From IMG/VR virus record IMGVR_UViG_3300029305_011788, positions 1 through 64,000 of that record: a stretch of DNA of 64,000 nucleotides; one strand, written 5' to 3'. Both the position numbers and the translations under genes were made by a program. Source of the stretch: a virus. Lineage: Duplodnaviria; Caudoviricetes. How positions within the stretch are numbered: the stretch's first letter is position 1; the number at the start of each line of letters is the position of its first letter. Shown here piece by piece: positions 31,882 through 50,067 of this stretch. Under the pieces are notes generated by a model, which was not told the DNA's origin, did no database searches, and saw only the letters and a list, made by a program, of their open reading frames with translations.

Positions 31882-32120
31882 GATTTTTCCTCCTCGTTGG
31901 TGATGATTGTGAATTCGTCTGCGCCTTCGATCAGGGAAAGCGTTCTGCCGTTGTCCCATTTCATATGGACATTGCCGGCATCGTCAATATAATCAACGGA
32001 ACCGGTCGTTCCGGGCGGAATGGGTGCGTAGGGATCGTCCATGTGATTCAGGCGGATGCGGGTGCCTGCGGGATAACGCTCCCGCAGGGCTTTCAGTTCA
32101 TGTTCATTCGGAAACCGCAT
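31878..32120 (-). CDS. DUF4314-like small protein
   Basis: YPAGTRIRL..MDDP...IPPGT.G.V..IDDAG..H..WDNG..L.LI.G.D. Confidence 0.75.
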   Translation of the reverse strand: MRFPNEHELKALRERYPAGTRIRLNHMDDPYAPIPPGTTGSVDYIDDAGNVHMKWDNGRTLSLIEGADEFTIITNEEEKS

Positions 32121-33096
32121 CGTACTCTTCCTCCTCGGTGGTCTGTGCGGCTGCCTTTGCCGCCTCACGCTTTGCCTTTTGGCGCTCCGTCCATTTTGCC
32201 TTTTCCTCATCGTTGCGGAAAGCGGTATGCCCGGTCAGATGCTCCAGAAGGATGCGGCGGTCGGTCTTGTGGTCTGCGCCGCCGAAGCCGATGCGTACCA
32301 GCCAGACGCGCATTGCGTACTTCTCGTTGCTGTCATCGACATCCTTTGCCTGCACGCGCTTCTGCGTCAGTGCCATGCTGTTCATCGCTGCGGCGAGGTT
32401 CGTGAATGCCTGCACATGGTCGGCATCCGGCGCTTCACCAAAACCGTCAAAGATGAGCTTGTCATCGGCAAATCGGATGCCCTTCAGTTCAGGGTTCGTT
32501 TCTTCCCATTCTCTGATAAAGGCGATCAGCTCGTAAGTGCTGCGGAACTCATGTCCGCCAATCTCATCCACAAGGCTCTTATCGGCGGCGAATGCTCCGC
32601 AGGTCGCCTTGCTGAGAAGTGCGCCCCTTGCGTGGATCATGCAGATGAGGTTCGTGAGGCTCTGCACCGTGTGGTCAGCCAGCGGAAGTGCGACCGTTAC
32701 CGCAATCGGGAAGCCGTCCGTTTCGGTCTCCGGCTCATTGTCATTGGTGACCTCTTCATCGGTGTCCGGCGTATCCTCCTCGGTGTCGGAAATGATGGTC
32801 ACATCAATCTCGACATAGTCCTCTTCGGCTTCCGTTACGGTATCCGTTCCTGCCGGCGGAGTGATTGTCTCGCCGTTGTAGCCTGCATCGGCAAGTCCGT
32901 CCAGCACCTTCTCCACGATCTCGGTGTCGCTGCGGTCGGTGAAGCTGAGGACCGCGTCCTTGCCGAGGGTAAAGATGTCGATCTGGTAGGCGCAGCTCGG
33001 AACGCCGAGGTACTTGACCTCTGCACCGATGATCTCTGCGATTTTCTGTGCCAGTGCCTTGCGCTGGCTCTTTTCGATATTGTACTTGATTTCCAT
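32104..33096 (-). CDS. Conserved phage protein (often labelled 'virulence-related protein'; function unknown)
   Basis: KYLGVPSCAYQI and NEKYAMRVWLVRIGFGG motifs; first gene after repeat promoter 11. Confidence 0.7.
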   Translation of the reverse strand: MEIKYNIEKSQRKALAQKIAEIIGAEVKYLGVPSCAYQIDIFTLGKDAVLSFTDRSDTEIVEKVLDGLADAGYNGETITPPAGTDTVTEAEEDYVEIDVTIISDTEEDTPDTDEEVTNDNEPETETDGFPIAVTVALPLADHTVQSLTNLICMIHARGALLSKATCGAFAADKSLVDEIGGHEFRSTYELIAFIREWEETNPELKGIRFADDKLIFDGFGEAPDADHVQAFTNLAAAMNSMALTQKRVQAKDVDDSNEKYAMRVWLVRIGFGGADHKTDRRILLEHLTGHTAFRNDEEKAKWTERQKAKREAAKAAAQTTEEEEYDAVSE

Positions 33097-33331
33097 AATA
33101 AAACCTCCGTTTTTACTGCCGCCCCTTGCGCCTTGTGCGCTTGGGCTGCGGCGTTTTCGTAGTCACATATTACCGCCTTTTGCCCCGGAATGCAAGACTG
33201 TAAAACGGAGAATGTACGGGGCATATCCGCCCCTGTGATTGTGCATAATACGAGTGTAAAAAAGAAGCCTGCGGCAGAACATCTGATTTAGTATCAGAAC
33301 GTTCACAATTTGCTGCAAGGCTTCTTTATTA

Positions 33332-33966: not shown

Positions 33967-34043
33967 GTGTATCTCTGCGAAATCAAAGTAACGCAGATTC
34001 GGGAGTTTTCGTTTCATCGTTTCAAAACGGGCACGTTATGCGT

Positions 34044-36515
34044 TCACTTTTGTGTATCTCTCTGCGCTGCCCATGCGATGCCGGAAAGCACGAAGTATAC
34101 GACCGGCTCTGAGACACCGTTGCCCCACAGCTTGTACTCCGCTGAATCCGTGTACGGATCAGCCAGCCATTTTCTGATCTGCTTTTCCGTTTTCGGCTTG
34201 CCCTTGGGATTGGTGATTTGCCGCCATGTTTCCCAGACCTCCGTCCAGAAAGCGATCTCCTCATCGGAAGGATCAGTAATTGCAAGGTCGGCACACCACC
34301 AGTCAGGGAATCCCTGTAATCGTGCACATTCAACGGGAGTCAAGCGGCGTACAATATATACCGGCTCGTCATTCGGAAGGTCGTTTACAAGCGGAGGATC
34401 CTTCCTGTCGGAAGCGACAAGCGTGTTTGCTTGTTCATGCGCAGCGACCGTGTGGTGTGAATTCTTGCTTGTGCAGTAATGATCTGCGGGGGCTGCGACT
34501 GTTGCAGTTCCTCTTGCAACAGCCGTAACGGATACATCCTCCGAAACGGCGAAGTGATTGTCGCGGGAGATTGTGAAGGAGGGATCAGGCGCGGCTACGC
34601 AATGGCGATCTGCGGTATTCAACGTGAAACATACATCCTCGTTGATGCCATCACCCTGCGGACCGTTTTGATCGGCACGACCGATCATTGAGCCTTGCAG
34701 AGCGTAGGTCTCCGGCTCAGCTACCACAACAGCCTGCTGATTATCCCCGGCATTTGCACGGAGCGTACCACTTTTGCCGTCACTATATACATGACCGCCG
34801 ATGCGGGATGCCGCCCCCGGTTCGAGAGCGACCACCGCAACTCCTCCATGATTCGAGTCTGGCGATCCCTCGCCGGTATCAAGGCATCGTGAAATCTGCG
34901 TCGGGTAGCAATGCCCACGAGCGTTTTTCGTGCCGTCCGATGTGAAACGCACATCGAATGTTTCCGGCGCAGGTGCTACCACGCAGATGCCGCCCTGATT
35001 CGATGTGACCGAATTTCCGCCGCTTTGGTCGAGTGTCCTGCTTGTGGTCGCTTCATAGAAACCGCTGTGCGGATTGTCCGACATCATCGCATTGGAATGC
35101 TTGCTGCATACACCGAAGGCATGGATATCCGGCTGGAAGAGCGTCTGGTCATTATTCGTACCGAGCGTTGCTGACTTGTCGGTCTGCCAGAGAGCGCCCT
35201 TGCCTCCACCGCTGCACCCCGCCCTTATCTTCAGCGTGACAGGTTCAGCGACAAGTGGCGTATTGTTTCCGCCTGTTCCGGCTCGTCCGCAGAGCGTCTG
35301 AAACACACCGTCGGGATTGATTTTCGCTCTTCCGTCCGTGGGATTATTCTCCACCACAAGCGGCTGATTGTTGCCGCCCATGCCGTAGGTAGCAGTCACA
35401 GGCTGGGCTACTTCCAGAGGTCCTCTGAATCGGCTGTCTTGCCCGTGATTTTCATAAAGTTCCATTGCCGCCGGAACGACACCGGCTCTCAGCGTCGGGG
35501 AGACTTCCTCCTCGTAACCGATGCTCCGAGCCTTTGCGCTGTGTTCGGTTGAGAATCCCGCCGCCTGCAGGACACCGTTTCTGCCGGTTGACATTCCGCA
35601 GTTCACACCGAGCGTTGCTGCGGTATCATCTGTAACCGCAGCATTGTAGCCGTCAATGCCGACCGCATGAAGCACCGCCGGATGATTGCCGTGATCCTGT
35701 GCGACCAGAGCGAGCGCCTTGTCCTCGGTGATGCCGACACCGGAATTGCCCTGCGGATTCAGGCAGAGGGTTCCACCTCCAGCGTCAGACCGCCCGCCTG
35801 TCTCTCCAGCGCTTTCCGCAGCACCTCCGGCAGTTCCTTGCCACGAACGGAAGCCCTGCGGAGTATACCCAGACACGCCTTCGGACTTAAATAGTATTTC
35901 TCCGGCACTTCCGCCAGCAAAATCTGCGACAAGGTAGATTCTTGCTCTGCGCTGGGGGACACCCCAGTATTGAGCGTCGAAAACTCGGTAAGCCACGCTC
36001 CATCCGTTTCCCAGATATACGTCTGATTTTGCCCATCTGTGATTCTCAGGCGCAGGCACCTCGATCCCTTTTTCTTTAACTCCGATAACTGCTTCGAGGA
36101 CAGCTTTGAAATCGTCTCCTCCGTTGGAGGAGAAAGCGCCGGGGACGTTCTCCCAGACGCAGTATCGCGGGTATTGTCCATTTGTTGCATCCCTCATTTC
36201 TTTGATGATGCGAATCGCCTGAAAGAACAGGTTCGACCGATCACCGTCATGGATTCCGGCACGCTTGCCCGCAATGGACAGGTCCTGACACGGGCTGCCG
36301 AAGGTGATGATATCCACCGGCGGAAGCTCCGCACCGTTCAGCGTAGATACATCGCCGTAGTGCTTCACCTGTGGAAGCCGTCTGTGCGTGACAAGTACCG
36401 GAAAAGGTTCAATTTCGCTGCTCCACTTCGGCTCGATCCCTGCGAGGATGCCGCCAAGCGGAAAACCGCCGGAGCCGTCAAACAGGCTGCCGAGCGTCAG
36501 ATGTTTTGTTTTCAT
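34044..36515 (-). CDS. Cytosine-C5 DNA methyltransferase with very long variable region
   Basis: FDGSGG (I), GSPCQ (IV), ENVPG (VI), QRRAR (VIII), RRLTPVECARLQGFP (IX), GNGV (X). Confidence 0.92.
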   Translation of the reverse strand: MKTKHLTLGSLFDGSGGFPLGGILAGIEPKWSSEIEPFPVLVTHRRLPQVKHYGDVSTLNGAELPPVDIITFGSPCQDLSIAGKRAGIHDGDRSNLFFQAIRIIKEMRDATNGQYPRYCVWENVPGAFSSNGGDDFKAVLEAVIGVKEKGIEVPAPENHRWAKSDVYLGNGWSVAYRVFDAQYWGVPQRRARIYLVADFAGGSAGEILFKSEGVSGYTPQGFRSWQGTAGGAAESAGETGGRSDAGGGTLCLNPQGNSGVGITEDKALALVAQDHGNHPAVLHAVGIDGYNAAVTDDTAATLGVNCGMSTGRNGVLQAAGFSTEHSAKARSIGYEEEVSPTLRAGVVPAAMELYENHGQDSRFRGPLEVAQPVTATYGMGGNNQPLVVENNPTDGRAKINPDGVFQTLCGRAGTGGNNTPLVAEPVTLKIRAGCSGGGKGALWQTDKSATLGTNNDQTLFQPDIHAFGVCSKHSNAMMSDNPHSGFYEATTSRTLDQSGGNSVTSNQGGICVVAPAPETFDVRFTSDGTKNARGHCYPTQISRCLDTGEGSPDSNHGGVAVVALEPGAASRIGGHVYSDGKSGTLRANAGDNQQAVVVAEPETYALQGSMIGRADQNGPQGDGINEDVCFTLNTADRHCVAAPDPSFTISRDNHFAVSEDVSVTAVARGTATVAAPADHYCTSKNSHHTVAAHEQANTLVASDRKDPPLVNDLPNDEPVYIVRRLTPVECARLQGFPDWWCADLAITDPSDEEIAFWTEVWETWRQITNPKGKPKTEKQIRKWLADPYTDSAEYKLWGNGVSEPVVYFVLSGIAWAAQRDTQK

Positions 36516-36529
36516 TTATTCCTCCTGAC

Positions 36530-37165
36530 TCAGACGTACTCGATGCGCCTGTCAGATTTTTGAAGCACGATAAAATACGCATGATACTTGCGGCTGTGCT
36601 TCTGATTCCGCTTTTGCCAGTCAGCTACCAGTCGGCTTTTCGCAAGCAGTACAAACAGGTCTTTCGGATAAAAGCCGATCTTCACCGCCTCGTTGATGAT
36701 ATACACATGGCTCAGATGCTGCCTGCCGCTGCTGACCTTGTCCTGACACTTGAAGATCAGGATGCCGTCCGGTTTCAGAACTCTGTATGCCTCGGAAAGC
36801 ATATCCGAATAGCATCGGTGCAGGCTCTTTTCATCGGGATATACACCGAAACGCCTGTTGATAATGTTGCCATCAGTTCCGTTCAGCGATTTCCCTTTGG
36901 TCGCCAGAAACGGCGGATCGAGCATCATGCACGAAATACTACTGTCCGCAAGCGGAAGATGCCTTGCATCCGCCTGTACCACATCGCTCCGCTGCGGAGA
37001 TATGTCAAATCGGTACTGTGGCAGAGCGATGTCCGTTCCGTTGTAGAAAGTCCCTGTGCTGAAGGTCGGATCGCAATCGATCTTTCCCTCCGGCACATGG
37101 AGCTTTAGAATGTTACGGATGATCTCGCCCTGATCGTAGCCGATGCTTTTTACAAGGTCAGGCAT
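36530..37165 (-). CDS. Amino (N6-A/N4-C) DNA methyltransferase
   Basis: DPTFSTG SAM-loop-like motif and LDPPF catalytic motif. Confidence 0.75.
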   Translation of the reverse strand: MPDLVKSIGYDQGEIIRNILKLHVPEGKIDCDPTFSTGTFYNGTDIALPQYRFDISPQRSDVVQADARHLPLADSSISCMMLDPPFLATKGKSLNGTDGNIINRRFGVYPDEKSLHRCYSDMLSEAYRVLKPDGILIFKCQDKVSSGRQHLSHVYIINEAVKIGFYPKDLFVLLAKSRLVADWQKRNQKHSRKYHAYFIVLQKSDRRIEYV

Positions 37166-37364
37166 CGGTCGCATTCCTGCATATCACAAGGAAATCCTCT
37201 CTGATCTGTTCTCTGTAGGCTGCCGCCACCGCAGGAATCTCATGCGTATACACTGGTCTGCCGATAAAGCCGGAAAGGTAATCGTACAGATATTTCAGAT
37301 CATCGCCTTTCAGCATCGAAATCTCTGTGTACGCGGTCACGACCGCACATTCATGCTTTGTCAT
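37158..37364 (-). CDS. Hypothetical 68 aa
   Basis: Translationally coupled between the methyltransferases. Confidence 0.65.
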   Translation of the reverse strand: MTKHECAVVTAYTEISMLKGDDLKYLYDYLSGFIGRPVYTHEIPAVAAAYREQIREDFLVICRNATDA

Positions 37365-38130
37365 CCAGCGCCTCCCCAAGCATCTGCTTACAGGCTTTCG
37401 TGTAAAAATCCCTGCTGACTTCAAAGCCGTAGCTGTGTCTGCCAAGTTCCCTCGCAGCGCGGAGCGTTGAGCCGGAACCGGCGCAGGGATCGATGACCAC
37501 ATCACCCTCATCGGTGAAAATACCGATCAGCCGCTTCAGCAGATTCACCGGCTTTTGGCTCGGATGTATCTTCGGGATATCCTTGCCGTCACGCACCCAA
37601 TCGAAGTGGTCGAAGATCATGTGCCGTCTGCCGTTCGCATCGGTATTGCGGAACTTCGGAAGCTTGCCGCGATACAGTACAAGAGCATATTCGGTAGCAC
37701 CCACGATCCTCATGTTTGCCTTCAGCACCTGCGGACTGTAATTCTTCATGAAGCACAAAAACTGATACTTCTTGAAGCCGTATTTCTCCGCCTGCCGGAT
37801 GACCTCCGGTATCTGCTGAAAGGCACAGAACACGATCATACACGGAGCGTCCTTTTCACCTTTGGACGGCTCTTTTTTGAGCAGCCGGTTACAGAAAGCA
37901 AAGTATTCCGCAATGTTGAAGGTGTAGTCCGTGTGGAATGCCGCCTTGTGTGCTTTGCTGCTTTCGCCGTTCTGATTGTCACCGTCTACATACCAGTCGG
38001 GACGGCTGGCATAAAAATCGCCGCCGATGTTATACGGGATGTCTGCGATGACAAGCTGCGCCTTCGGGATGTTGTAGCCTTTGAAGTTTTGGAAATTATC
38101 ATGCAGTAAAACGCATTTCACATCAGCCAT
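37351..38130 (-). CDS. Beta-class amino DNA methyltransferase
   Basis: IADIPY, HPSQKP, VIDPCAGSGST motifs. Confidence 0.85.
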   Translation of the reverse strand: MADVKCVLLHDNFQNFKGYNIPKAQLVIADIPYNIGGDFYASRPDWYVDGDNQNGESSKAHKAAFHTDYTFNIAEYFAFCNRLLKKEPSKGEKDAPCMIVFCAFQQIPEVIRQAEKYGFKKYQFLCFMKNYSPQVLKANMRIVGATEYALVLYRGKLPKFRNTDANGRRHMIFDHFDWVRDGKDIPKIHPSQKPVNLLKRLIGIFTDEGDVVIDPCAGSGSTLRAARELGRHSYGFEVSRDFYTKACKQMLGEALDDKA

Positions 38131-38926
38131 CGACACCCTCCAGTCTCTTTTTCAGTGCCTTGCGGAATTCCTTTGTGCCGAGCTGATTGCCGTCCGTCTG
38201 CCATTCCAGCTCAAAATCAAAACGCGCCTCCAGTTTCCGGACTGACCAGCCGGGCTTGAAGGTGCGCCATGTCGCATCGTCCCACTCTCTGAGTTGTTTC
38301 CAAAGGTCGGGGAAATCGTAGTAAAGAACACGCAGCTCGTTCAGCGGCTGCAGCGGGCAGCACCAACAGGATACCCGTCCGAATTTCTCATACAGACCGC
38401 CCCAGTCATAGCCGCGTTCCCTGCAGTATTGCAGGCAGTCAGCTTCGGTCATGCCCCACTCCACAAGCGGCAGCCGGACATTCGGTCGGCAGTTGCATTT
38501 GTGCGTAATGCGTTCCGTTTCATCGGCGGCGATGCCGATGTACTCGATCACCGTGTACTTCTTTCGCAGTTCGCTGAGGAATTTCTCGCGGGGTACTGTT
38601 TTCAGAAGATTGGTACACCACCGCATCAGCGGTCCCGCCCAACTGTATCCGGTCTTGCCGCGCATTTCCGGCTTTTTCCGTTTGATTGGCTTATGGAGCA
38701 TGAGATATTCAAAGGTATATTCGCTCTTGACAGTCGTAACCTTCATGCCGGTATCCTGCTCAACTTTGTGTACATGGTCATACAGTGCCGGGAATTCCAA
38801 ACCGGTATCGCAGAACAGTACCACATCGACCTGCATACCCATTTCGAGCATTTTCAGGAGCATTGCAGTGCTGTCTTTTCCACCGCTGAAGGAGACCATA
38901 TGGAGCAGAGGTTTCATCTCATCCAT
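38123..38926 (-). CDS. PAPS reductase-family (PP-loop) protein
   Basis: SFSGGKDS, FCDTGLEF, WCT..LK, GIAADE, RVSCWCCP motifs. Confidence 0.85.
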   Translation of the reverse strand: MDEMKPLLHMVSFSGGKDSTAMLLKMLEMGMQVDVVLFCDTGLEFPALYDHVHKVEQDTGMKVTTVKSEYTFEYLMLHKPIKRKKPEMRGKTGYSWAGPLMRWCTNLLKTVPREKFLSELRKKYTVIEYIGIAADETERITHKCNCRPNVRLPLVEWGMTEADCLQYCRERGYDWGGLYEKFGRVSCWCCPLQPLNELRVLYYDFPDLWKQLREWDDATWRTFKPGWSVRKLEARFDFELEWQTDGNQLGTKEFRKALKKRLEGVDG

Positions 38927-40190
38927 TCGCGTCACCGTCCTGCGGCATCGCTGCGACCGCTTCATCGAAGGAGAGCTTCTGACCGCCACGGATAACATAT
39001 GCGACCTCGGCAGTCTGCTTTTCGTGACACCATGCGAGATACCGCTTGACGATGACATCCACAAATTTCGGATCAAGCTCAATGCCACGGCAGACACGGT
39101 CTGTCTCGCAGCAAGCGATCAGCGTGGAGCCGCTGCCGAGGAACGGATCGAGGACGATGCCGTTTGTCATGGTGCTGTTTTTGATCGGGTATGCCATCAG
39201 CGGGATCGGTTTTGTGGTCGGATGGTCGGGACTGCTCTTGGGCTTGTCGTATTCCCATACAGTCGTCTGCTTGCGGTCGGCGTACCACTGATGCTTGCCC
39301 TTCTGTTTCCAGCCGAACAGACACGGCTCGTGAATCCACTGGTACGGACTCCTGCCCAGCACCAGAGAATTCTTCTTCCAGATACAGCAGCCGGAAAGCT
39401 GGAATCCCGCCTCCTTGAATGCTCTGCGGAAGTTCAGCCCTTCGGTGTCGGCGTGCCATACATAGATGCTGCCGTCATCGGCAAGGTTGTCATACATACA
39501 CTTATAAGCGGCAAGCAGGAAGTTATAGAAATCGCTGTCACTCATGTTATCGTTCATAATCTTGCCGGCGGTCTCCTCAACGTCCACATTATAAGGGGGA
39601 TCGGTCAGGACGAGGTTTGCCTTCTGATCGTCCATCAGCTTTGTGTATGTCTCTGCGACTGTACTGTCGCCGCAGATGACTTTGTGCCTGCCGAGAATCC
39701 AGATGTCTCCCGGCTGTGAGAAGGTCGGCTTTTGCAGTTCTTCCTCCACATCGAAGCTGTCCTCTTTGACCTGCTTGTCGTGTACTTGATTGAAAAGCTG
39801 CTCGATCTCCGGCGGATCAAAGCCGGTCTTGCCGAGGTCGAAATCGCTGTTCTGGATATCTTCGAGCAGTTCTGCCAGAAGGCTCTCGTCCCATGCGCCG
39901 GTAATTTTGTTGAGCGCAATGTTCAGAGCCTTTTCACGCACCTTGTCGATGTCCACCACGGCGCAGGGTACCTCGGTGTATCCGAGCGCCATCGCTACGG
40001 TCAGTCTTTGGTGTCCGCCGATGATCGTCATATCGGCATTGACAACAAGCGGATCGGCAAAGCCGAATTCGTCGATGCTGTTTTTAATTTTCTCGTATTC
40101 CTTATCGCCGGGCTTCAGATTTTTACGGGGGTTATATTCCGCAGGCTTCAGTTCCGAGACAGGGATCATACGAAGTTCTGCTGTTTTCAT
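38919..40190 (-). CDS. ParB-N-domain-fused amino DNA methyltransferase
   Basis: YNPRK..IDEFGFADPL..IIGGHQR (ParB-N); TDPPYN, HPTTKP, LDPFLGSGST. Confidence 0.9.
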   Translation of the reverse strand: MKTAELRMIPVSELKPAEYNPRKNLKPGDKEYEKIKNSIDEFGFADPLVVNADMTIIGGHQRLTVAMALGYTEVPCAVVDIDKVREKALNIALNKITGAWDESLLAELLEDIQNSDFDLGKTGFDPPEIEQLFNQVHDKQVKEDSFDVEEELQKPTFSQPGDIWILGRHKVICGDSTVAETYTKLMDDQKANLVLTDPPYNVDVEETAGKIMNDNMSDSDFYNFLLAAYKCMYDNLADDGSIYVWHADTEGLNFRRAFKEAGFQLSGCCIWKKNSLVLGRSPYQWIHEPCLFGWKQKGKHQWYADRKQTTVWEYDKPKSSPDHPTTKPIPLMAYPIKNSTMTNGIVLDPFLGSGSTLIACCETDRVCRGIELDPKFVDVIVKRYLAWCHEKQTAEVAYVIRGGQKLSFDEAVAAMPQDGDANG

Positions 40191-40191
40191 C

Positions 40192-40527
40192 TCATCCCTC
40201 CACATAGTACAATTGCCGCAGCTTTGCGGCTCGCTTTAAGTTCTGCTCCTTCAGTGCAGCCATCTCACGGAGCGCCTGTTCACTCAGGGGCTTGATCTTG
40301 TGCTTTTCCGCAAGCGTTCTGTATCTGCGGATATCTTTGCGGAGGTCTGCATCTGTCACGGATATGAGATACGCCTTGCCGCAGTAGTCGCAGCGGAAGA
40401 AGCTGTATTCAATCTCACCCTCACGCTGTGTCAGCGTTTCAGGGACAAAAGCACATCCGCACTTATCACACCGCACTGCATTTTTCAGCACGATGCGAGG
40501 TTTGTTCTTCTTTGTTTTCCGGCTCAT
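40192..40527 (-). CDS. Hypothetical Zn-ribbon protein
   Basis: CDKC and CDYC. Confidence 0.7.
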   Translation of the reverse strand: MSRKTKKNKPRIVLKNAVRCDKCGCAFVPETLTQREGEIEYSFFRCDYCGKAYLISVTDADLRKDIRRYRTLAEKHKIKPLSEQALREMAALKEQNLKRAAKLRQLYYVEG

Positions 40528-40577
40528 ACGGCTCCTTTCCCGGTCATGATCTGCACAAGGAATGTGCGTTATCTGCG

Positions 40578-40690
40578 CCCGATGTTCTGTACATTTAGCC
40601 GCTTGCTATTACCCCGATAACGTGGTAATATGGGTACAACGGAACGAGGGGAAACCCCACCGAATACAGAACGCGGAGGACACAGCTATG
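40578..40690 (+). promoter_or_regulatory. Twelfth, inverted copy of the array promoter-leader
   Basis: TCTGTACATTTAGCCGC-TTGCTA-17-TAATAT-GGGTACAACGGAA...GGAGG. Confidence 0.85.
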
Positions 40691-40876
40691 AAGTACGAGG
40701 TTACCATCAACAACTACCAGAAGGGCGCGCAGCTCAAGACCGCCATGCCGGATCATGTGCTCCTGCTCGAAAAGATCGACCGGAATCACCATCGGGTGGT
40801 CTACGAGCTGGAGAACGAACGCCAGCGGCAGTTCATCGAGAAGGTGTATGCCCGGAAGCTCCGCCCCCTCGACTGA
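40688..40876 (+). CDS. 62-aa hypothetical (MKYEVTINNY...) driven by the array-type promoter
   Basis: GGAGG RBS; opposite strand to its neighbours. Confidence 0.75.
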   Translation: MKYEVTINNYQKGAQLKTAMPDHVLLLEKIDRNHHRVVYELENERQRQFIEKVYARKLRPLD

Positions 40877-41354
40877 GGGCGGGTTGCCCGACCGCCTCGC
40901 CGCCGCGCAAGCGGAGGATGCGCTGATTCCGGCTGCCCCGGAAGGCAAGCGAGATGTCCTTCTGTTCCAGCAGGAACGGACCGTCTACAAGCACATCGAC
41001 ATAGCGGAGGATTTCCTCACCCCGAAGCATCTCGTAGGTGTATCCGGAGAACAACCAGATATCCTTCTCCGGCATCTCCCACCAGATCTTCTTCAGCAGC
41101 GGCAGCAGCACACACTCGTTCTCCTCCTCGCAGGGTTCGCCGCCGAGTATGGAAATGCCCTGAATCCAAGAAGGACGCAGGGCATTGATGATCTCTTTTT
41201 CGGTTTCGGAAGTGAACGGCTGACCGTAGTTGAAGTCCCATGTCTCCGGGTTATGACAACCCTTGCAGTGATTCCGGCATCCGCTGACGAACAGCGACAC
41301 ACGCACACCCTCGCCGTTGGCAATGTCATTCTTATTCAGACCGCAGTAGTTCAC
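40833..41354 (-). CDS. nrdG: Anaerobic RNR-activating radical SAM enzyme
   Basis: ANGEGVRVSLFVSGCRNHCKGC, LGGEP, DVLVDG, FRGSRNQR; GTG start overlaps the nrdD stop. Confidence 0.92.
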   Translation of the reverse strand: MNYCGLNKNDIANGEGVRVSLFVSGCRNHCKGCHNPETWDFNYGQPFTSETEKEIINALRPSWIQGISILGGEPCEEENECVLLPLLKKIWWEMPEKDIWLFSGYTYEMLRGEEILRYVDVLVDGPFLLEQKDISLAFRGSRNQRILRLRGGEAVGQPALSRGGGASGHTPSR

Positions 41355-43492
41355 AGGTGCATCACCCGATCCTTGATCTCTGCCGTCCTGCCTTGATTCC
41401 AGAATTGCGTGCCGAGGTAGCCGCAGGTACGGCGGCAGACATTCAGCGTCCGCTGATCGCGGTTGCCGCAGTTCGGACATTCCCAGATCAGCTTGCCGTC
41501 TACTTCCACGATCCCGATCTCGCCGTCATAGCCGCAAGCCTGACAATAGTCGGATTTGGTATTCAGTTCGGCGTACAGGATCGTTTCATAAATGTGCCGC
41601 ATCAGCGCAAGCACCGCAGGAATGTTGTTTTGAAGGTTCGGCACTTCCACATACGAAATCGCGCCGCCGGGAGAAAGCTCCTGAAATTCGGACTCAAAGG
41701 TCAGCTTGCTGAAGGCATCAATCGGCTCGGTCACATGGACATGATAAGAATTAGTGATATAGCTTTTATCCGTCACATGGGGAATGATGCCGTGTCTGCG
41801 CTGAAGGCACTGTGCAAATTTGTAGGTGACGGATTCCATCGGTGTACCGTACAGCGAAAAGCTGATGTTTGTTTCGGAGCGCCACTTGCTGCACTTGTCA
41901 TTTAGGAATCGCATCACCGAAATGGCGAAGGCTTTTCCCGCCGGTTCTGTATGCGAACAGCCTGTCATGCGGTAGGTCATTTCTGCGATACCGGCATAGC
42001 CGAGCGAGATCGTGCTGTAATTGTTATACAGCAGGTCATCAATGACCTCGCCGTTCTTCAGTCTTGCCAGTGCGCCGTACTGCCAGAGGATCGGCGCAAC
42101 ATCGGACGGAGTTCCTTTCAATCGCTCATGCCTGCACATTAGCGCCTTGCGGCACAGTTCGCAGCGTTCATCAAGAAGCTGCCAGAACTTGTCAGTATCG
42201 CCGTCAGCGGAACACGCTACATCCACAAGATTGATGGTAACGACACCCTGATTGAAGCGACCGTAATACTTGTGGTCAGCGGAAGGTGTCAGGAAAGATC
42301 GGCAGCCCATGCAGGCATACACATCGCCTTTGAGCTGTTTCATGATCTTGGCAGAGATATAATCGGGAACCATGCGCTTTGCCGTACACTTGGCGGCAAG
42401 TTCGGTGAGGTAGTAATACTTGGAGCCGGGCTGAATATTGTCCTCATCGAGAACATAGATCAGCTTCGGGAATGCCGGTGTGATCCACACGCCCTTCTCG
42501 TTTTTTACGCCCTCGATACGCTGCAACAGCGTTTCCTCGATGATAAGCGCAAGGTCATCTCTGGTCTGTCCCTCCGGTACCTCGTCCAGATACATGAACA
42601 CTGTCACAAACGGAGTCTGTCCGTTGGTGGTAAGCAGTGTATTGATCTGGTACTGGATGGTCTGTACGCCTCGCTTGACTTCCCGGCGCACACGCTTTTC
42701 AACGATATGGTCGAGTTCTTCCTCGGACAGCTTTGCACCGCAGTCGCAGTTCACATCCTCGAACACCTCGGCTCGTATCTTCTGGCGGCTGACATCCACA
42801 AAAGGTGCGAGGTGCGCCAACGACACTGTCTGTCCGCCGTACTGGTTCGATGCCACCTGTGCAATGATCTGCGTTGCGATGTTGCAGGCAGTCGAAAAGC
42901 TGTGCGGCTTCTCGATCATTGTACCGGATACCACAGTACCGTTCTGAAGCATATCTGCCAGATTCACCAGACAGCAATTGTGCATCGGCTCTGCGATGTA
43001 GTCGAGGTCATGCACATGAATGATGCCGTCATCATGGGCGGCGATCACATCCTCCGGAAACAGAAAGCGGCGGCAGATGTCTCTGCTGACTTCACCCGCC
43101 ATATAGTCGCGGAGTGTGCTGTTGATGATTGGATTCTTGTTGGAATTCTCCTGCTTGGCTTCCTCGTTGTTGCGCTCCAGCAAACTGAGGATTTTGCCGT
43201 CCGTCGTATTTATCCGACGCTGCTGCTCATGACGCAGACGGTACTCGCTGTAGTGGCGTGCAAGTTTGTACGCTTCGGCCTTGTCCAGTTCATCGAGGAC
43301 CATGTCCTGGACTTCTTCGACATGGACAGGTCTTGCAAGCGCCTCACACCGCTGCTCGACTCTGCCGACAATGAAGCCGATAGCCGTATCAGATATCTTC
43401 TCCGACACCTCATCATTTGCCGCTGATATTGCGGCTCTTATCTTTTCGCAGTTATACGGCACTTCCGCACCGTTGCGTTTTATAATTCTCAT
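41351..43492 (-). CDS. nrdD: Class III (anaerobic) ribonucleotide reductase with ATP cone
   Basis: IKRNG ATP cone, HNCCL, YACMGCR, TNSYH, CxxC...CPNC, RRTCGYLG glycyl-radical motif. Confidence 0.95.
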   Translation of the reverse strand: MRIIKRNGAEVPYNCEKIRAAISAANDEVSEKISDTAIGFIVGRVEQRCEALARPVHVEEVQDMVLDELDKAEAYKLARHYSEYRLRHEQQRRINTTDGKILSLLERNNEEAKQENSNKNPIINSTLRDYMAGEVSRDICRRFLFPEDVIAAHDDGIIHVHDLDYIAEPMHNCCLVNLADMLQNGTVVSGTMIEKPHSFSTACNIATQIIAQVASNQYGGQTVSLAHLAPFVDVSRQKIRAEVFEDVNCDCGAKLSEEELDHIVEKRVRREVKRGVQTIQYQINTLLTTNGQTPFVTVFMYLDEVPEGQTRDDLALIIEETLLQRIEGVKNEKGVWITPAFPKLIYVLDEDNIQPGSKYYYLTELAAKCTAKRMVPDYISAKIMKQLKGDVYACMGCRSFLTPSADHKYYGRFNQGVVTINLVDVACSADGDTDKFWQLLDERCELCRKALMCRHERLKGTPSDVAPILWQYGALARLKNGEVIDDLLYNNYSTISLGYAGIAEMTYRMTGCSHTEPAGKAFAISVMRFLNDKCSKWRSETNISFSLYGTPMESVTYKFAQCLQRRHGIIPHVTDKSYITNSYHVHVTEPIDAFSKLTFESEFQELSPGGAISYVEVPNLQNNIPAVLALMRHIYETILYAELNTKSDYCQACGYDGEIGIVEVDGKLIWECPNCGNRDQRTLNVCRRTCGYLGTQFWNQGRTAEIKDRVMHL

Positions 43493-43974
43493 GCTGTATC
43501 CATCAGCTCCTTTTCGGACTCTGCCAGAAGTGTGGCACAGTCTTTTTCGTGATATCTCCGGCACTGCCGGTTCAGTATTTCATACACACATTCCTTTTCG
43601 GATTCCGTCAGGTCAATTGTATACATATCCTCATTGTCATCCGAATCCGAATTAACGACCACAAAGCTGATGCTGCTGTCAAGCTGGCACCGCTGATGGT
43701 CGCCGGGAAGTTTTGATATCCCGACATAGAAATCATACCAGCCGTCATTGTCAACATCGTCTGTTCTGCTGTCTCGCGGATGCATCGGGAGGTAGCCTTT
43801 CTCCATACGGATTCTGTCAGCGACCTCAACAAGTGCATCCGTTGCCGCAAGCTGAAACTCGACAGTCGGAAAGCGGCAGGGATAGGTGTCATAGATCTGG
43901 TCGCTGCCGTACATGACCTCCGCACCGCTGTCAAGCTGAATGGCATCAGTGATGAACTTTTCAGTCAGCGTCAT
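43489..43974 (-). CDS. Hypothetical 161 aa
   Basis: Coupled (ATGA) on both sides. Confidence 0.65.
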   Translation of the reverse strand: MTLTEKFITDAIQLDSGAEVMYGSDQIYDTYPCRFPTVEFQLAATDALVEVADRIRMEKGYLPMHPRDSRTDDVDNDGWYDFYVGISKLPGDHQRCQLDSSISFVVVNSDSDDNEDMYTIDLTESEKECVYEILNRQCRRYHEKDCATLLAESEKELMDTA

Positions 43975-44225
43975 GACTTGCCCTCCTGCTTTCCGAGGTA
44001 CTCAATGTAGCGGTTGATATACCAGATCGCTTTGCGGAGGTCTTCGGAGGTCTTGCTCTTATCTTTCCGCCCTGCGCGGCAGATGTATTTTATCGCGTTC
44101 GCCAGATGGAACGGGAAGTTCCACGATTCCAGAAAGTCGATGACCTCGATGCCGCCAGCAGTGTAATGTGACGGATGATTCACGGGATCGTTCTGCACCA
44201 CAGACTGATTATTGTTTTCTGTCAT
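43971..44225 (-). CDS. DUF3310-like protein
   Basis: DPVNHPSHYT.GGIEVID...NAIKYI.RAG.K...EDL.KA.WY. Confidence 0.8.
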   Translation of the reverse strand: MTENNNQSVVQNDPVNHPSHYTAGGIEVIDFLESWNFPFHLANAIKYICRAGRKDKSKTSEDLRKAIWYINRYIEYLGKQEGKS

Positions 44226-44397
44226 GACGTTTTCTCCTCTCTTCCTGAATCGGACACCAGCCATCGTAGAAACAATGCTTGCAGTCCGTGTAGTGGCATT
44301 TGCCGTCATGATTCAGAATGCTGTGAATCCAGACCGCCTGAAAAACGATCATAAACAACATCAGAATCCAGTTCAGAATCGCTAAGACCATGTTCAT
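44209..44397 (-). CDS. Small membrane-anchored Cys-rich protein
   Basis: N-terminal hydrophobic helix, then CxxxxCxxCxxxxxC. Confidence 0.55.
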   Translation of the reverse strand: MNMVLAILNWILMLFMIVFQAVWIHSILNHDGKCHYTDCKHCFYDGWCPIQEERRKRHDRKQ

Positions 44398-44693
44398 ACC
44401 TCCGTATCTTTTCTCATAATGCAGTATCTCGTGCGGCAGCTACCAGAACAGAAACGTCTGCGTCTGCCGCGCCGCGGCTGTTTCAGCTTTATGCCGCAGA
44501 AGGCGCAGCGGTTATTCTCTCGGCACCAGACATCGTGGTTTAGCCTGACAAGACCAGCATCTCCGGCAAGCCCATGCGACTTGCAGTAGAGCTGTACCAA
44601 ATGCTCGTCCAGATTCAGTGTCTTGCCGATGACGTGATATCCGATGCCCTGCATCCGCATACTGAGGATCTGCTGCTTTTGTGTGTCGGTCAT
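44394..44693 (-). CDS. HTH + Zn-finger protein
   Basis: N-terminal HTH-like segment; CAFC...FCSGSCR. Confidence 0.65.
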   Translation of the reverse strand: MTDTQKQQILSMRMQGIGYHVIGKTLNLDEHLVQLYCKSHGLAGDAGLVRLNHDVWCRENNRCAFCGIKLKQPRRGRRRRFCSGSCRTRYCIMRKDTEV

Positions 44694-44974
44694 ATCCTCA
44701 CATCCTCAAAATGGCTTTACTACGCACCTTTTCGGTATCCACACGGGCTGCGCCCAGTGAAAAACGGCGGAAGCATAAAAACGCTGAAAATGATGTTTTT
44801 CGCTTGTTTTTTGCGTGAAAAATCGTCGTTTTTCACCGTTTTCATTAACGAAATAGCGCAGTGCCGCTTTGAAAGGAGAAGATGTAGTATGCCATCTGAA
44901 ATATCGCATAGAATCAAGATTTTCCGTTGCCGCCGTTTCCGTTGGCGGCTCTATTTTTTTCAACTGTCAGGGTC

Positions 44975-45110
44975 CCAGACGGGCGGGGGGCCTTCAATTT
45001 CGCGTTTTTTAACACGAGAGGGGCCGACGGTCTTGTGCTGCCCTCATTTTAGAGATTTCGACCCGCCCCGGGGCAGCCCCAGCCCCCAGCCCCCGCCCCA
45101 TAGGTACACC
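44975..45110 (-). other. Probable cos/packaging region
   Basis: Non-coding, G/C-run-rich tract directly downstream of HNH, the usual cos position in HK97/P27-type phages. The exact nick site was not determined. Confidence 0.5.
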
Positions 45111-45153
45111 CCTGAGCCAAGTCTGAATCGCAGAGTAGGTCGGTGAGCCGCAT

Positions 45154-45522
45154 TCAGTACTTGTACTCAGGGGTGTGATCTTCGTTTCGGGTCTTGATGC
45201 TGTGGTGACGGTGGCAAAGGCTCTGCCAGTTGCTTTGATCCCAGAAGAGAACGCTGTCTCCTCGGTGCGGCTTGATGTGATCCACATCAGTCGCCTTGAC
45301 GTAGCGTCCCTGCTTCAAGCACTCCACACACAGCGGATGGGTCTCAAGGTAACGCTTGCGGGCTTTGTTCCACGCTGTGCCGTAGCCTCGGCTGCCTGCG
45401 GAACGTGTATCCTCCGGATGAAGGGAACGATGCTTGTCACAGTACTTCGTACCATAAGGAACGAGCGCCGCACAGCCGGGATGCCGGCATGGAGTATTTG
45501 GTCTCTTAGGCATTGGCTTCAC
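45154..45522 (-). CDS. HNH endonuclease (terminase accessory type)
   Basis: HPLCVEC...DVDHIKPH...NWQSLCHRHHSIKT. Confidence 0.9.
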   Translation of the reverse strand: MKPMPKRPNTPCRHPGCAALVPYGTKYCDKHRSLHPEDTRSAGSRGYGTAWNKARKRYLETHPLCVECLKQGRYVKATDVDHIKPHRGDSVLFWDQSNWQSLCHRHHSIKTRNEDHTPEYKY

Positions 45523-45625
45523 CTCCGCTTGCCAGCTCTTGTAAAAGAGCCTCTACTATATACCGTTTCAGGGGGGCAAAATGGCGGGGTGGTTTGGAAA
45601 TTTTTTTCAAAAACCTCAAAATTTT

Positions 45626-46720
45626 TCAGTACTCCCACGGAAGCCCCTGCTTTCCGAAGTGTCCGTAGGCGGAAACCTTGTTATAATCTACATCCAGCAG
45701 ACCAAGGCTCTCGATGATGCCCCTCGGCGTAAGGTCGTAGTTTTCACGGACATACTGGTTGATAAACTCAGCGTCCTGATGCTCCGTACCGAAGGTCTCC
45801 ACATAGACCGACACGGGCTCTGCCACACCGATGGCGTATGAAATCTGCACCTCTGCCTTGTCTGCGTATCCGGCACTGACGATGTCCCTTGCGATCTTGC
45901 GGGCGGCATACGCACCGCTGCGGTCGACCTTGGACGGATCCTTGCCGGACATTGCACCGCCGCCGATGTGTCCGATGCCGCCGTAGGTGTCGCAGGCGAG
46001 CTTGCGCCCGGTCACACCGCAGTCAGCAAAAGAGCTGCCGAGGACAAAACGGCCGGTCGGATTCACGAGCTTTGTGAAGTCGGTGTTCAGCCCGTATTCA
46101 GTGGCAGTTCGGATCATGATGCTCTCGATGATCTCACGGAAGTCATCAACCTCAACATCACGGAGATGCTGTACCGAACAGAGGAAGGTCGTGATCCTGC
46201 CGGTATCATAATCAAAGCTGACCTGCGCCTTGGCATCGGCTTTGAGCATACGACAGGGGTAGGCTTTCAGCAGTTCCAGAGATCTGGTCGCCAGCGCGAA
46301 GGGGATCGGGAGCAGTTCCGGCGTTTCGTTGGTCGCATAACCGTACATCATACCCTGATCTCCTGCACCGCCGGTATTCACACCGAGAGCAATATCGTTG
46401 CTCTGGTGATCGATCAGAATGGCGATGTCAAGATCATCTGCTGTGAAGTCCAGCTTATAGTCAAGTCCTGCATCTGCGCTCTCTGCACCGCCGTTGTTGA
46501 TGCAGTCAAACACCTGCTGCACAAGTGCCTTATAATCCGGCTCATGTGTGCTTATCAGTTCACCGGCGATCACAAGGCAGCGGTTCTTGAAAAGGCACTC
46601 GATTGCAACACGGCTACTACGGTCATGGCGAAGGCAGTCGGTCACAATGGCATCTGCGATCTGGTCACAGATCTTGTCGGGGTGTCCAGCGGATACCTGT
46701 TCACTTGTAATGATTCTCAT
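45626..46720 (-). CDS. metK: S-adenosylmethionine synthetase
   Basis: SEQVSAGHPDKICDQI, GAGDQG, GRKLACDTYGG, GGGAMSGKDPSKVDRS, SAYGHFG. Confidence 0.95.
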   Translation of the reverse strand: MRIITSEQVSAGHPDKICDQIADAIVTDCLRHDRSSRVAIECLFKNRCLVIAGELISTHEPDYKALVQQVFDCINNGGAESADAGLDYKLDFTADDLDIAILIDHQSNDIALGVNTGGAGDQGMMYGYATNETPELLPIPFALATRSLELLKAYPCRMLKADAKAQVSFDYDTGRITTFLCSVQHLRDVEVDDFREIIESIMIRTATEYGLNTDFTKLVNPTGRFVLGSSFADCGVTGRKLACDTYGGIGHIGGGAMSGKDPSKVDRSGAYAARKIARDIVSAGYADKAEVQISYAIGVAEPVSVYVETFGTEHQDAEFINQYVRENYDLTPRGIIESLGLLDVDYNKVSAYGHFGKQGLPWEY

Positions 46721-46870
46721 ATTCTTGTTCCTCCTGAATGATTGATCGTTGGATTTTGACCTTGCCACGCTTTGTCGCTTACACACTCTTTGTCAGTGAC
46801 AGCATCGGGCAAGGTTCAAAACATGATTTTTCCCTATTCTTCTTATCTTTTCTATTATTTTTATTTATTT

Positions 46871-46958
46871 GGGGCAAGTAGGGGCAAGTAAAAATAGTAA
46901 TATATATAAGAGAAGTAATAATAATAACCACCGAAAAAACTTGCCCCACGCTGCCCCA
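46871..46958. repeat. Candidate replication origin: GGGGCAAGTA x2, AT-rich core, inverted CTTGCCCC/CTGCCCC
   Basis: Direct and inverted repeats flank an AT-rich core immediately downstream of the primase-helicase. Confidence 0.5.
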
Positions 46959-46997
46959 ACTGCGGAAAACAGCGTAAATACGGAGAAAAGTCTGCGT

Positions 46998-49427
46998 TCA
47001 CTCTAAAGCTGCAAACTCCTCCGGCTCGTCAGCTTCGCCGTTTTCATGATCCAGGAAACGACAGCCCACAAGCATCGTTGTTTTCTGCGCACCCTTTGTA
47101 TCGTTCGGGCGCTTGCGGATAATCGGGAAAAAACGCTGGATCGCGTTATTGAAGTTGGTGCTGTTCTCCTTGCGGTAGCCATACTTATCGCACCATTCAC
47201 CGTACAGCTTATATGCCGCAGAGGTTCGGACTTCAAATGCTTCGCCTTCTTCGAGCCACGCATCCACAAACTGCCCGATGCGGTCAGACTCCTCCTGATA
47301 CTCCTTGGTTGCCTGAGATACAGCAGCCGGATCTTCCAGACCTTCGGAACGGAACCGCTTATATCCCTCATAGCACCAGTTGAAGATGGCAGAGAGACAG
47401 ACATCCGTACTGAAAAACGCCTTCAATCCCTTGTCCTGCTCATGTTCCTCGAAATGACGTTTGAATGGGATGAGCTTTAGACGATTGGAATAAAACAGCG
47501 TCATATCGGACACGGACGGTTTGTAATTCGTATTGATGAAGATCTTGAAATTCGGTCGGAAGTCAAAAGAATTCTCGTGCAGGAAGCGGGCATTCAGTGT
47601 ATCGTTACCTGTCATTCTCTTGACAAGTGCTGCATTGAAGGTGATCTTCTTCTCCGGCTCGGAGATATTGACAAAACGGACACCCGCAAGGCGAGCAATC
47701 TCCTCAGACGGTCCGGACGCATTGGTGTTGCCGAATTTTGTAGACAGCATTTCCGGATTGGAGGTCTTGCCGTAATCACCCATAATTTTGAGAAAGGTCT
47801 CCATTGTGGTACCTTTACCGTTTCGGGAGGTAGCACCGTAGAGGATGAACAGGCATTCAAGCGATGTGTCGCCTGTGAGAGCATAGCCGAGAGCCTTCTG
47901 CAAGTATAATGCGAGGTCAGCATCGTTACACATAACTTCGGAAATGAACTGCTCCCATCTCGGACAGGTGGCATTCGGATCATAAGTGACGCCGGACATC
48001 ATGGTGAGAAAGTCTGCCGGATCGTGCGGACGGAATTCACCTGTGGTGAGGTTCAGTGTACCGTTCTGACAGTTGAACAGATCAGTATTGCGGTCAAAGA
48101 TAGCGTGCGGCACAGGATACACGGATTTCGCATCTTCAATCATGGTGCGGCGGTTCTTCCGCATCTGCAGCTTTTGAACACGCTTGATGTAACGGTTGCG
48201 GGTGTCCTCATCCTTGATCTGAAGGGCAAAGGTATACAGCCTGTCTGCCAGACGCTTTGCAAGCTCCGCCACAGCAAGCGCGTTCTCATCCGGCTGCCAC
48301 ACCTTTCCGTCAAAGACATACCAGATGCCGCGTTCACGGTCGAAACGAGCGATGGGCTTATAATAATCTGCAAAAGCATAGCCGATGCCGATCTCGTCAC
48401 GCTGATAGCGGGGATTCGTGTGCGGCTGCATTTCTTCCAATGTCAGAGAAACATGGGTGAGATCCGGCTCAAACATAAGCTGCTCATTTTCCGCATCGCC
48501 CTCGATATCGTCAAAGTCATCCTCTGCCGTAGAATCTGCAATTGGTGTATAGACAGCGGAATTGGTAGCGACAGCATTGCGAATAGTGATCTGTCCGTAG
48601 GTCGCATCACCGGTCTTGCGATCCCACTTATCACGCATAAGTCCAGAGGTGCGGAAGATACGGTCGATCTGCTCCTCCACATTGCCGCACCAGAAGCAGA
48701 GCATGGACACGAATGCCATATCTGCATCGGACTGCGAATCATAGCCTTCCTCCCAGTTGCCCTCGTAAAGCGCTTTGAACTTGTCGCCGGATTCAGATGC
48801 CAGTGCATGAGCGATCACGCCATCGTCATCCAGATAAGACGATGCTTCAATGGTTTTTGCAGACATACGAGTGCTGCGCTTCATGAAGGTGTCAAGCAGA
48901 TTGCGGAGCGCATCATCGTCACGCTCCACTGTGCCGGGGCGGAACATATCGCCCGTAACGGTTACAAAGCGGTTGGTCGTTCCCGGCAGATAGACCTCCA
49001 GTCCGTGCTTGCGATTGTTGATGTAGTACACGGTCTTATCGTAGGCGAAATCAGGGCTGAGTTTGAAGAAGCCTCGCAGTCCGGTACCGGAGGGAGAGCG
49101 TTCAAAGTAAGCAGTTGAGAAGATACCGAGAATGGATGCAGCCACATCATTCAGGCTTCCGTCTTCACGGATACAGTGGTCAATATCAATGGCACCGATA
49201 CCCTCGCTGACACGGTAGCCGATGCCGTCCCATCCGCCGATGGCGTACGCCTTCATTGCGGTCTTGAAGTCAGTGAAGGTAGACGGATCGTTGGTTCTCG
49301 CCATTGCGCCAGTGCGTGGATTATACGGCACTTTGGTGGGGCGACCGCTGCGCTTCTCCATCTTCCATACACAGAACGATGCAGACTGTTTCAGCACATC
49401 GGGGATATTCACGAAATTTACAGACAT
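46998..49427 (-). CDS. Primase-polymerase (NrS-1-like) fused to D5/P4-type SF3 helicase
   Basis: IDIDHC and SPSGTGLR (prim-pol), SQSDADM helix bundle, SRNGKGT Walker A, LIPF. Confidence 0.88.
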   Translation of the reverse strand: MSVNFVNIPDVLKQSASFCVWKMEKRSGRPTKVPYNPRTGAMARTNDPSTFTDFKTAMKAYAIGGWDGIGYRVSEGIGAIDIDHCIREDGSLNDVAASILGIFSTAYFERSPSGTGLRGFFKLSPDFAYDKTVYYINNRKHGLEVYLPGTTNRFVTVTGDMFRPGTVERDDDALRNLLDTFMKRSTRMSAKTIEASSYLDDDGVIAHALASESGDKFKALYEGNWEEGYDSQSDADMAFVSMLCFWCGNVEEQIDRIFRTSGLMRDKWDRKTGDATYGQITIRNAVATNSAVYTPIADSTAEDDFDDIEGDAENEQLMFEPDLTHVSLTLEEMQPHTNPRYQRDEIGIGYAFADYYKPIARFDRERGIWYVFDGKVWQPDENALAVAELAKRLADRLYTFALQIKDEDTRNRYIKRVQKLQMRKNRRTMIEDAKSVYPVPHAIFDRNTDLFNCQNGTLNLTTGEFRPHDPADFLTMMSGVTYDPNATCPRWEQFISEVMCNDADLALYLQKALGYALTGDTSLECLFILYGATSRNGKGTTMETFLKIMGDYGKTSNPEMLSTKFGNTNASGPSEEIARLAGVRFVNISEPEKKITFNAALVKRMTGNDTLNARFLHENSFDFRPNFKIFINTNYKPSVSDMTLFYSNRLKLIPFKRHFEEHEQDKGLKAFFSTDVCLSAIFNWCYEGYKRFRSEGLEDPAAVSQATKEYQEESDRIGQFVDAWLEEGEAFEVRTSAAYKLYGEWCDKYGYRKENSTNFNNAIQRFFPIIRKRPNDTKGAQKTTMLVGCRFLDHENGEADEPEEFAALE

Positions 49428-49924: not shown

Positions 49925-50067
49925 ATAATTTTCACCTCCACATTGTCATTTTTCACAATCACGAATCTGCGATATTTTTGTGAAAAAGTTGCTTTGAAAA
50001 AATTTCGGTTTTTTGCTATAATAGAAATACAGCGAAAGCTGAATAAATACGGAGTGAGTGTGCAGTT

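Follow-up and report, generated by a model that had tools for sequence, protein, structure and literature searches.

How did a single, inverted copy of a promoter/leader module that otherwise drives an array of minus-strand units come to lie at the 3' end of an anaerobic ribonucleotide reductase activase gene, and what does its presence there say about the mobility of such units? We addressed this question in a window of 64,000 nt, by which we mean the whole stretch of DNA that was analyzed (positions 1 to 64,000 of IMG/VR record IMGVR_UViG_3300029305_011788). IMG/VR classes the record as a provirus of 72 kb, and the bacterial contigs nearest to the window belong to Oscillospiraceae metagenome-assembled genomes (MAGs), of which several come from ruminant gut; the host of this provirus is an Oscillospiraceae bacterium of the ruminant gut. 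A first-pass annotation, made from the letters alone, had proposed that the lone unit was inserted here, that it replaced the native nrdG stop codon, and that it is evidence that the cassette unit can relocate.

The unit lies within a run of minus-strand genes at 39.8-41.4 kb that, read from the sequence, comprises nrdD, nrdG, a zinc-ribbon gene, a ParB-DNA-methyltransferase gene, and a PAPS-reductase-like gene. Relatives that have the unit at this position are called carriers below. The genes concerned are as follows.

41351-43564, minus strand: nrdD, anaerobic ribonucleotide reductase (PF13597, E=2e-191)
40890-41354, minus strand: nrdG core, codons 1-155, anaerobic ribonucleotide reductase activase (PF13353, E=7e-49; phrog_626)
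40833-40889, minus strand: nrdG tail read through into the insert, GQPALSRGGGASGHTPSR (18 codons) and a stop, with its final 44 nt antisense to ORF62; not in non-carriers
ATG 40688 to TGA 40874-40876, plus strand: ORF62, 62 aa, between nrdG and the zinc-ribbon gene
40192-40527, minus strand: zinc-ribbon gene, 111 aa (phrog_1315)
38919-40205, minus strand: ParB-DNA-methyltransferase gene

NrdG contains the expected radical-SAM 4Fe-4S domain, with the PF13353 match covering residues 12-146 and the phrog_626 match (E=2e-53) covering residues 1-150. Directly upstream lies nrdD, the stop codon of which overlaps the nrdG start in the sequence GTGA. The nrdG start is most likely the GTG at 41354, which gives a protein of 173 aa ending ...FRGSRNQRILRLRGGEAVGQPALSRGGGASGHTPSR, with its stop codon at 40833-40835 on the minus strand; the 215-aa nrdG frame in the program-made list of open reading frames is an extension upstream of this GTG. 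On the opposite strand, the ORF62 start as first given has to be corrected to the ATG at 40688, which is preceded at a distance of 8 nt by a GGAGG ribosome-binding site (40675-40679, plus strand). The two genes converge and overlap by 44 nt (40833-40876), the length originally reported.

The remaining features belong to the promoter/leader module, to the end of the unit, and to the array.

40552-40687, plus strand: full copy of the promoter/leader module, preceding ORF62
40552-40593, plus strand: paired boxes TGCACA (40552-57)-N30-TGTACA (40588-93), upstream of the -35 and in the geometry of the array units
40603-40631, plus strand: promoter-like site by sequence match, TTGCTA (40603-08)-17 nt-TGG-TAATAT (40623-31)
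40640-40662, plus strand: leader ACAACGG with hairpin CGG..GGGG-AAA-CCCC..CCG
40861-40883, both strands: GC-rich hairpin spanning the ORF62 stop codon, with a T-run on neither strand
23600-33230, minus strand: array of 11 transcription units with the same promoter/leader module, the family of the lone unit

A regular-expression search of the window for the -35, the 17-nt spacing, and the -10 returned 12 family units and one stray match; 11 of the units lie on the minus strand at 23.6-33.2 kb and one on the plus strand. All 12 have in common the -35, the 17-nt spacing, TAATAT, ACAACGG, and the hairpin, and the box 18-mer TGTACATTTAGCCGCTTG occurs five times in the window compared to 0.04 occurrences expected by chance. 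Inverted-repeat matches place the lone unit at 70-89% identity to array units over 27-90 nt, which falls inside the range of the array units among themselves. By sequence, then, the lone promoter belongs to the array family, and the earlier statement that the same box, promoter, and leader precede a plus-strand 62-aa frame holds, as does the distance of about 7 kb from the array (the closest array unit, at 33195, is 7.4 kb away). The inner stem of the array leaders is GGGC/GCCC, whereas that of the lone unit is GGGG/CCCC; the outer CGG/CCG stem is identical. The 17 distinct leaders compared, taken from six genomes, each fold into a variable inner stem enclosed by an outer CGG/CCG stem, and comparable arrays are present in relatives G001 and G003-G005.

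Aligned carriers have invariant boxes, invariant hexamers, and an invariant 17-nt spacing around three different spacer sequences, as would be expected for a promoter under selection, and the lone promoter is probably active. Against this, it matches only 8 of 12 positions of an E. coli-type consensus, which is below the threshold of a generic scan, and that scan did not list it. We found no T-run terminator after ORF62, and the terminator scan did not call the 40861-40883 hairpin; the unit is therefore incompletely self-contained at its 3' end. A 10-nt inverted repeat (TATTACCCCG / CGTGGTAATA) at 40607-40630 spans the promoter spacer of the lone unit and overlaps both hexamers; it is not obviously retained in L003 or L025. 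Directly upstream of some array modules, for example at 31330-31375 on the minus strand, there is a second, degenerate -10/leader-like stretch (GGCGTAATATGCACAACAAACGG...), and such stretches suggest tandem partial duplications of the module.

We then compared the locus with its relatives. An NrdG scan of viral contigs yielded 33 close loci. In five of these (L001, L002, L003, L025, and L038), nrdG and the zinc-ribbon gene are separated by ORF62, which the other 28 lack. The MAG loci included two carriers (NrdG of 173 aa) and four non-carriers (155/156 aa), and the same split is present in assemblies and JGI metagenomes. The arrangement and its NrdG tail are thus not common to all relatives: 32 of them, 28 viral contigs and 4 MAG contigs, have an empty site. 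A MAFFT alignment of 6 carriers and 10 non-carriers showed one clean gap with junctions identical across all carriers, and it defined the boundaries of the inserted segment to within approximately 3 nt, as follows.

40480-40889, no strand: inserted segment of 410 nt, in carriers only, with approximately 29 nt in its place in relatives such as L006

The segment runs from just after nrdG codon 155 to zinc-ribbon codon 16/17. The first 16 codons of the zinc-ribbon gene (40480-40527) and its ribosome-binding site are accordingly specific to carriers, and the N-terminus that they encode is rich in lysine (MSRKTKKNKPRIVLKN). Neither a scan nor inspection by eye found a promoter for the zinc-ribbon gene inside the insert, and we assume that this gene is transcribed by read-through from nrdDG. 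The GC content of the insert (0.546) does not deviate from that of its neighbors (0.53-0.57). The target duplication sought at the junctions was absent, as were direct or terminal inverted repeats at 40480 and 40889. The insertion was probably non-homologous.

Non-carriers show what the junction looks like when it is empty. Their NrdG has 155 aa (156 in L029 and L121), compared to 173 or 156 aa in carriers, and ends in ...RLRNGVRV, ...LKGGKPI, or similar. The nrdG stop codon and the start codon of the gene that follows overlap, in the form ATGA or ATGGTAA; at least 26 relatives have the ATGA overlap between nrdG and the zinc-ribbon gene, two genes that the unit splits in carriers. The overlap holds for any gene that comes next: it is seen with the zinc-ribbon gene in this place, with the ParB-methyltransferase gene there instead (L026 group), and with a 58-aa membrane ORF (L030). 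Because the overlap is kept with whichever gene lies downstream, and because it is not credible that deletions repeatedly remade a perfect start/stop overlap, the coupled state is ancestral.

The gene 3' of nrdG varies in other ways too. The L026 group (L026:4465-4600) has no zinc-ribbon gene, and nrdG is coupled directly to the ParB-methyltransferase gene, and L030 (4465-4640) has its extra 58-aa hydrophobic ORF after nrdG; the nrdG 3' junction is a modest hot spot for gene turnover. On the other side of nrdG, the frame that ends at the nrdG start has 1016 codons in L026, L027, L028, and L032 (upstream of 4001) compared to approximately 715-745 elsewhere, and this long NrdD frame of the L026 group could owe its length to an intein, to an insertion, or to a fusion at the N-terminus.

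What happened to NrdG differs in part from the original description, which took FRGS.NQR as the usual end of the protein. The NrdG of this clade runs 10-11 residues beyond NQ (...NQRILRLRNGVRV), and distant NrdGs mostly run 17-20 further, so that the non-native part amounts to the 18 residues of the tail rather than 23. NrdG has 173 aa in the window and in L001-L003, L088, L109, L110, L112, L116, and L117. In the carriers L025, L038, L089, and L108 it has 156 aa, as one extra base right after codon 156 creates a TAA, and translation stops at codon 157. The proposal of an insertion stands, given the 28 viral and four MAG empty sites and the junctions common to all carriers, and both the insertion and the read-through of nrdG into it are strongly supported, but the tail is not an obligatory result of the insertion. 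Since 156-aa carriers exist in several samples, the tail is dispensable.

Five sites vary within the 44-nt overlap. Three of them are synonymous for ORF62, and these three change the tail, as we read by hand from the tail sequences. The tail codons outside the overlap vary among carriers (GQPAL, GYPAL, GTHSL, and GNPSL). Given that the tail varies where ORF62 allows it to, we regard it as an unselected by-product and not as a new functional domain. The W-TAA end of L025 and L038 resembles that of the non-carriers L029 and L031, so the original insertion may have kept a stop codon that was lost later in the lineage of the window.

Carriers do not form one clade in a tree of NrdD and NrdG: L003 pairs with L011, which is a non-carrier (support 98/92), five changes in the segment are required on the maximum-likelihood tree, and a single change suffices in 0 of 200 bootstrap trees. 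The flanks are mosaic, in that the zinc-ribbon protein of the window is 93% identical to that of the non-carrier L006 and 71% identical to that of the carrier L003. The simplest reading is that one old insertion would have been moved subsequently between phage backbones by homologous recombination.

The cargo of the unit behaves as a gene. Pairwise dN/dS for ORF62 is 0.07-0.35 among carriers and 0.15-0.22 against L087, the homologue of which is 76-77% identical; the L086 homologue is 60-64% identical and comes from an AT-rich genome with saturated synonymous sites. Both of these homologues sit behind unrelated TTGACA-17-TATAAT-type promoters and are followed by other genes on the same strand. 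A profile search recovered 60 representative clusters of the family, mostly free-standing proteins of 60-70 aa, and the homologue in L113 lies in a run of small genes. To judge from its coding sequence, ORF62 is a real protein-coding gene. Its GC3 of 0.87, calculated over 62 codons, is raised relative to backbone genes (0.57-0.65) and to array cargo (0.69-0.79); the array cargo genes compared lie at 23609-33230 and the sampled replication and structural genes at 34000-52000.

The AlphaFold2 model of ORF62 has a pLDDT of 94.6 and a beta-alpha-beta-beta-alpha-beta topology. Neither Pfam nor PHROG contained a match to the protein, and a feature search of the ESM Atlas gave no usable match. Foldseek against the PDB and a fold search of BFVD returned generic ferredoxin-like folds only (best E 0.11 and 0.043, respectively), the best hit of a wide VIA-align search (Z 7.0) was to an uncharacterized protein, and a structure search of the Atlas returned unnamed clusters and EF-G C-terminal-type domains. 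Because these matches are only generic, a function cannot be drawn from them.

Several further loci bear on the family. In L109 (3390-3718) and L110 (1389-1717), a 1-nt deletion (GCC-GCTCATG) splits ORF62 into ORFs of 70 and 39 aa; both phages keep the promoter and a 173-aa NrdG, which indicates that the cargo is dispensable and decaying in some phages. The sole clear fusion in the family is P0018 (L114:1628-3298), a protein of 556 aa with no Pfam match and an ORF62-like domain at residues 156-214. The carrier L203 (335-520) has a promoter and leader almost identical to those of the window and an ORF62 that is just 69% identical, which suggests that an allele was replaced within the unit, in the stretch from the conserved leader to the conserved 3' end. 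In L111 (1-1023), the zinc-ribbon start, the module, and the first 32 or so ORF62 codons (84% identical to the window) give way abruptly to unrelated DNA with a hexapeptide-transferase-like gene. We considered L111 as a third, independent cassette site and rejected it; the left side is the zinc-ribbon context of L003 and the DNA is foreign only after ORF62 codon 32 or thereabouts, so L111 represents the truncated edge of a prophage or else a chimera of the assembly.

Where the unit came from is a separate question. For the promoter module, whether or not ORF62 came along with it, we put the odds of an origin in an array of this phage group at roughly even, and the choice between a unit born in the array and a small gene of foreign origin that took on the resident module is just as evenly balanced. 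The claim that the cassette unit can relocate went beyond what we found: ORF62 turned up in no array of the contigs and proteins searched, the module is one-sided, and the unit has no inter-cassette hairpin. In its full form, relocation would mean that the module and ORF62 once stood together in an array, either of this phage or of a sister phage, and were copied or moved as a unit; array cassettes would then be mobile. We regard it as plausible while placing it somewhat short of an even chance. It accounts for the completeness of the module, which comprises approximately 135 nt with the exact 30-nt box spacing, the 17-nt promoter spacing, and the leader hairpin, and for the 74-84% identity between the lone unit and the array units at 23619-23669, 27093-27193, and 30455-30563, within the inter-array range; the ORF62 GC3 is also nearer to that of array cargo than to that of the backbone, a weak indication given 62 codons. 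However, we did not find ORF62 inside any array in viral contigs, JGI metagenome contigs, or a protein set of 5.8 billion clusters. Within this phage group it was found solely at the nrdG/zinc-ribbon junction, and elsewhere solely behind unrelated promoters; an array origin thus lacks direct support. The inter-cassette hairpin motifs of the array (TGTGTGGGGC and GCGCGACACGGCGC) are present at 23.7-31.4 kb only and absent near 40.4-41 kb, and the lack of a target duplication also counts against relocation. With a module on one side only, the insert cannot be the product of recombination between two modules.

Alternatively, ORF62 could have arrived from an unrelated phage as a foreign moron with its own promoter, with recombination with an array unit later replacing the region upstream of it. 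The L086 and L087 homologues behind unrelated promoters agree with such a course, as do the approximately 60 family clusters, mostly free-standing genes amid small phage genes. L203, in which a near-identical promoter precedes a 69%-identical ORF62, indicates that module and cargo can have separate histories. Yet two events are required, and homologous recombination needs prior similarity between the foreign promoter and the module, of which L086 and L087 show none; we consider a promoter swap of this kind rather unlikely.

We also considered whether the ORF62 frame is incidental and the promoter serves to make a non-coding RNA antisense to nrdG/nrdD. Since the unit converges with nrdDG and is not followed by a T-run terminator, its transcripts could extend into nrdG, and L109 and L110 keep the promoter despite their frameshifted ORF62. 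This explanation is nevertheless highly improbable in view of the low dN/dS, the 60-64% conservation of the protein in an AT-rich genome the synonymous sites of which are saturated, the confident fold prediction, and the GGAGG at 8 nt before the ATG; an antisense effect could exist alongside the coding function of ORF62. Hardly credible is an ancestral segment that relatives lost by deletion, which would reproduce the scatter of carriers on the tree through repeated loss, but which has against it that all non-carriers combine a perfect overlap with an NrdG of 155/156 aa, across several sequence variants and three different genes downstream, that independent deletions would not remake this state, that the more distant outgroups (L026 group, L030, L122, and L123) lack the segment, and that remnants of the module or ORF62 (deletion scars) were not seen in the aligned non-carriers.

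The course that we favor begins with an ancestor in which nrdD, nrdG, the zinc-ribbon gene, and the ParB-methyltransferase gene would have formed one translationally coupled minus-strand operon, with the nrdG stop and the zinc-ribbon start having ATGA in common. A single non-homologous insertion would then have placed a self-contained unit exactly at this ATGA, in the opposite orientation; this unit would have begun with paired TGTACA-type boxes and a sigma-A-type promoter, continued through a leader hairpin and a ribosome-binding site to the 62-aa gene, and closed with a short GC hairpin. With the ATGA destroyed, nrdG would read into the insert and stop after 18 codons (window type) or after 1 (extra-base variant), the last 44 nt of the tail would end up antisense to ORF62, and the zinc-ribbon gene would have gained a new ribosome-binding site and N-terminus. 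Later, homologous recombination in the genes on either side would have carried the insertion allele to related phages. We consider this course as a whole, from the coupled operon through the single non-homologous insertion and the read-through to the spread by recombination, very probable.

Among known systems, the closest comparison is to the morons of lambdoid phages, which reportedly came to light in the comparison of HK97 and HK022 by Juhala, Hendrix, and co-workers. Like these, the lone unit is an extra gene with its own promoter (at the level of sequence) between genes that are adjacent in relatives, and it is dispensable (frameshifted in L109 and L110), patchy in distribution, and spread by recombination. 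Unlike these, it is not deviant in base composition and has no T-run terminator; it is opposite in orientation, sits exactly in a start/stop overlap, and lengthens the upstream protein; and its promoter is not foreign but a copy of the phage's own repeated module. The description of the lone unit as a moron-type insertion that uses the array-type promoter of the phage is well supported. The fate of NrdG recalls overprinting by stop-codon loss, in that a stop was lost and translation enters sequence constrained by a gene on the opposite strand; the difference is that the tail bears no sign of selection and a single base removes it in sister alleles.

The array of this provirus resembles integron cassettes (attC and IntI) in consisting of small, unrelated single-gene units with imperfect hairpins between them, but every unit has its own promoter module, and the lone unit is without an attC-type 3' hairpin. 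No integrase gene adjoins the array or the insert, and we saw no conserved recombination core site at the junctions. We rejected the lone unit as an integron cassette on the basis of its own promoter, the absence of an attC-type hairpin, and the absence of an adjoining integrase.

T4-type phages have PeSL (promoter-early stem-loop) regulatory cassettes, in which near-identical sigma-70-type promoters and a stem-loop precede small orphan genes in a plastic region (PMC2839356; Comeau et al. 2014, PMC4122927). A few PeSLs lie inside conserved replication modules, and Arbiol et al. 2010 (PMC2839356) name nrdD as one of the known genes that have PeSLs close by; recombination between two PeSLs is the mechanism shown for T4-type cassettes (PMC2839356). 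Similarly, the window has 12 copies of a sigma-70-like promoter with a stem-loop, mostly before small orphan genes and in a plastic region. The phage here, however, is a temperate provirus of a Gram-positive anaerobe and not a T4-like lytic phage, the stem-loop is in the transcribed leader with paired TGTACA boxes upstream, and the 410-nt indel has a module at one end and the ORF62 3' hairpin at the other, which does not correspond to PeSL-by-PeSL recombination. A more far-reaching idea, which we put forward only as a speculation with little chance of being correct, is that the module is a PeSL-like mobile regulatory element of temperate Oscillospiraceae phages, one that seeds co-regulated units outside the array without a second copy, and that the convergent lone unit without a terminator exerts antisense or collision control on nrdDG.

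The locus provides an unusually clean before/after pair for gene gain by a phage, with dozens of empty sites and junctions placed within a few bases. A unit was dropped into a start/stop overlap, with the result that the upstream protein was lengthened, translational coupling was broken, and the downstream gene received a new start; the read-through tail is tolerated, and one base removes it again. As an example of how phage genomes change, it is well documented but ordinary. The lone unit suggests that the module can work outside the array, but it is no proof that cassettes of the array are moved as units. ORF62 represents a widespread family of small phage proteins with a predicted ferredoxin-like fold, and it is a candidate for an early-gene or anti-defense screen.
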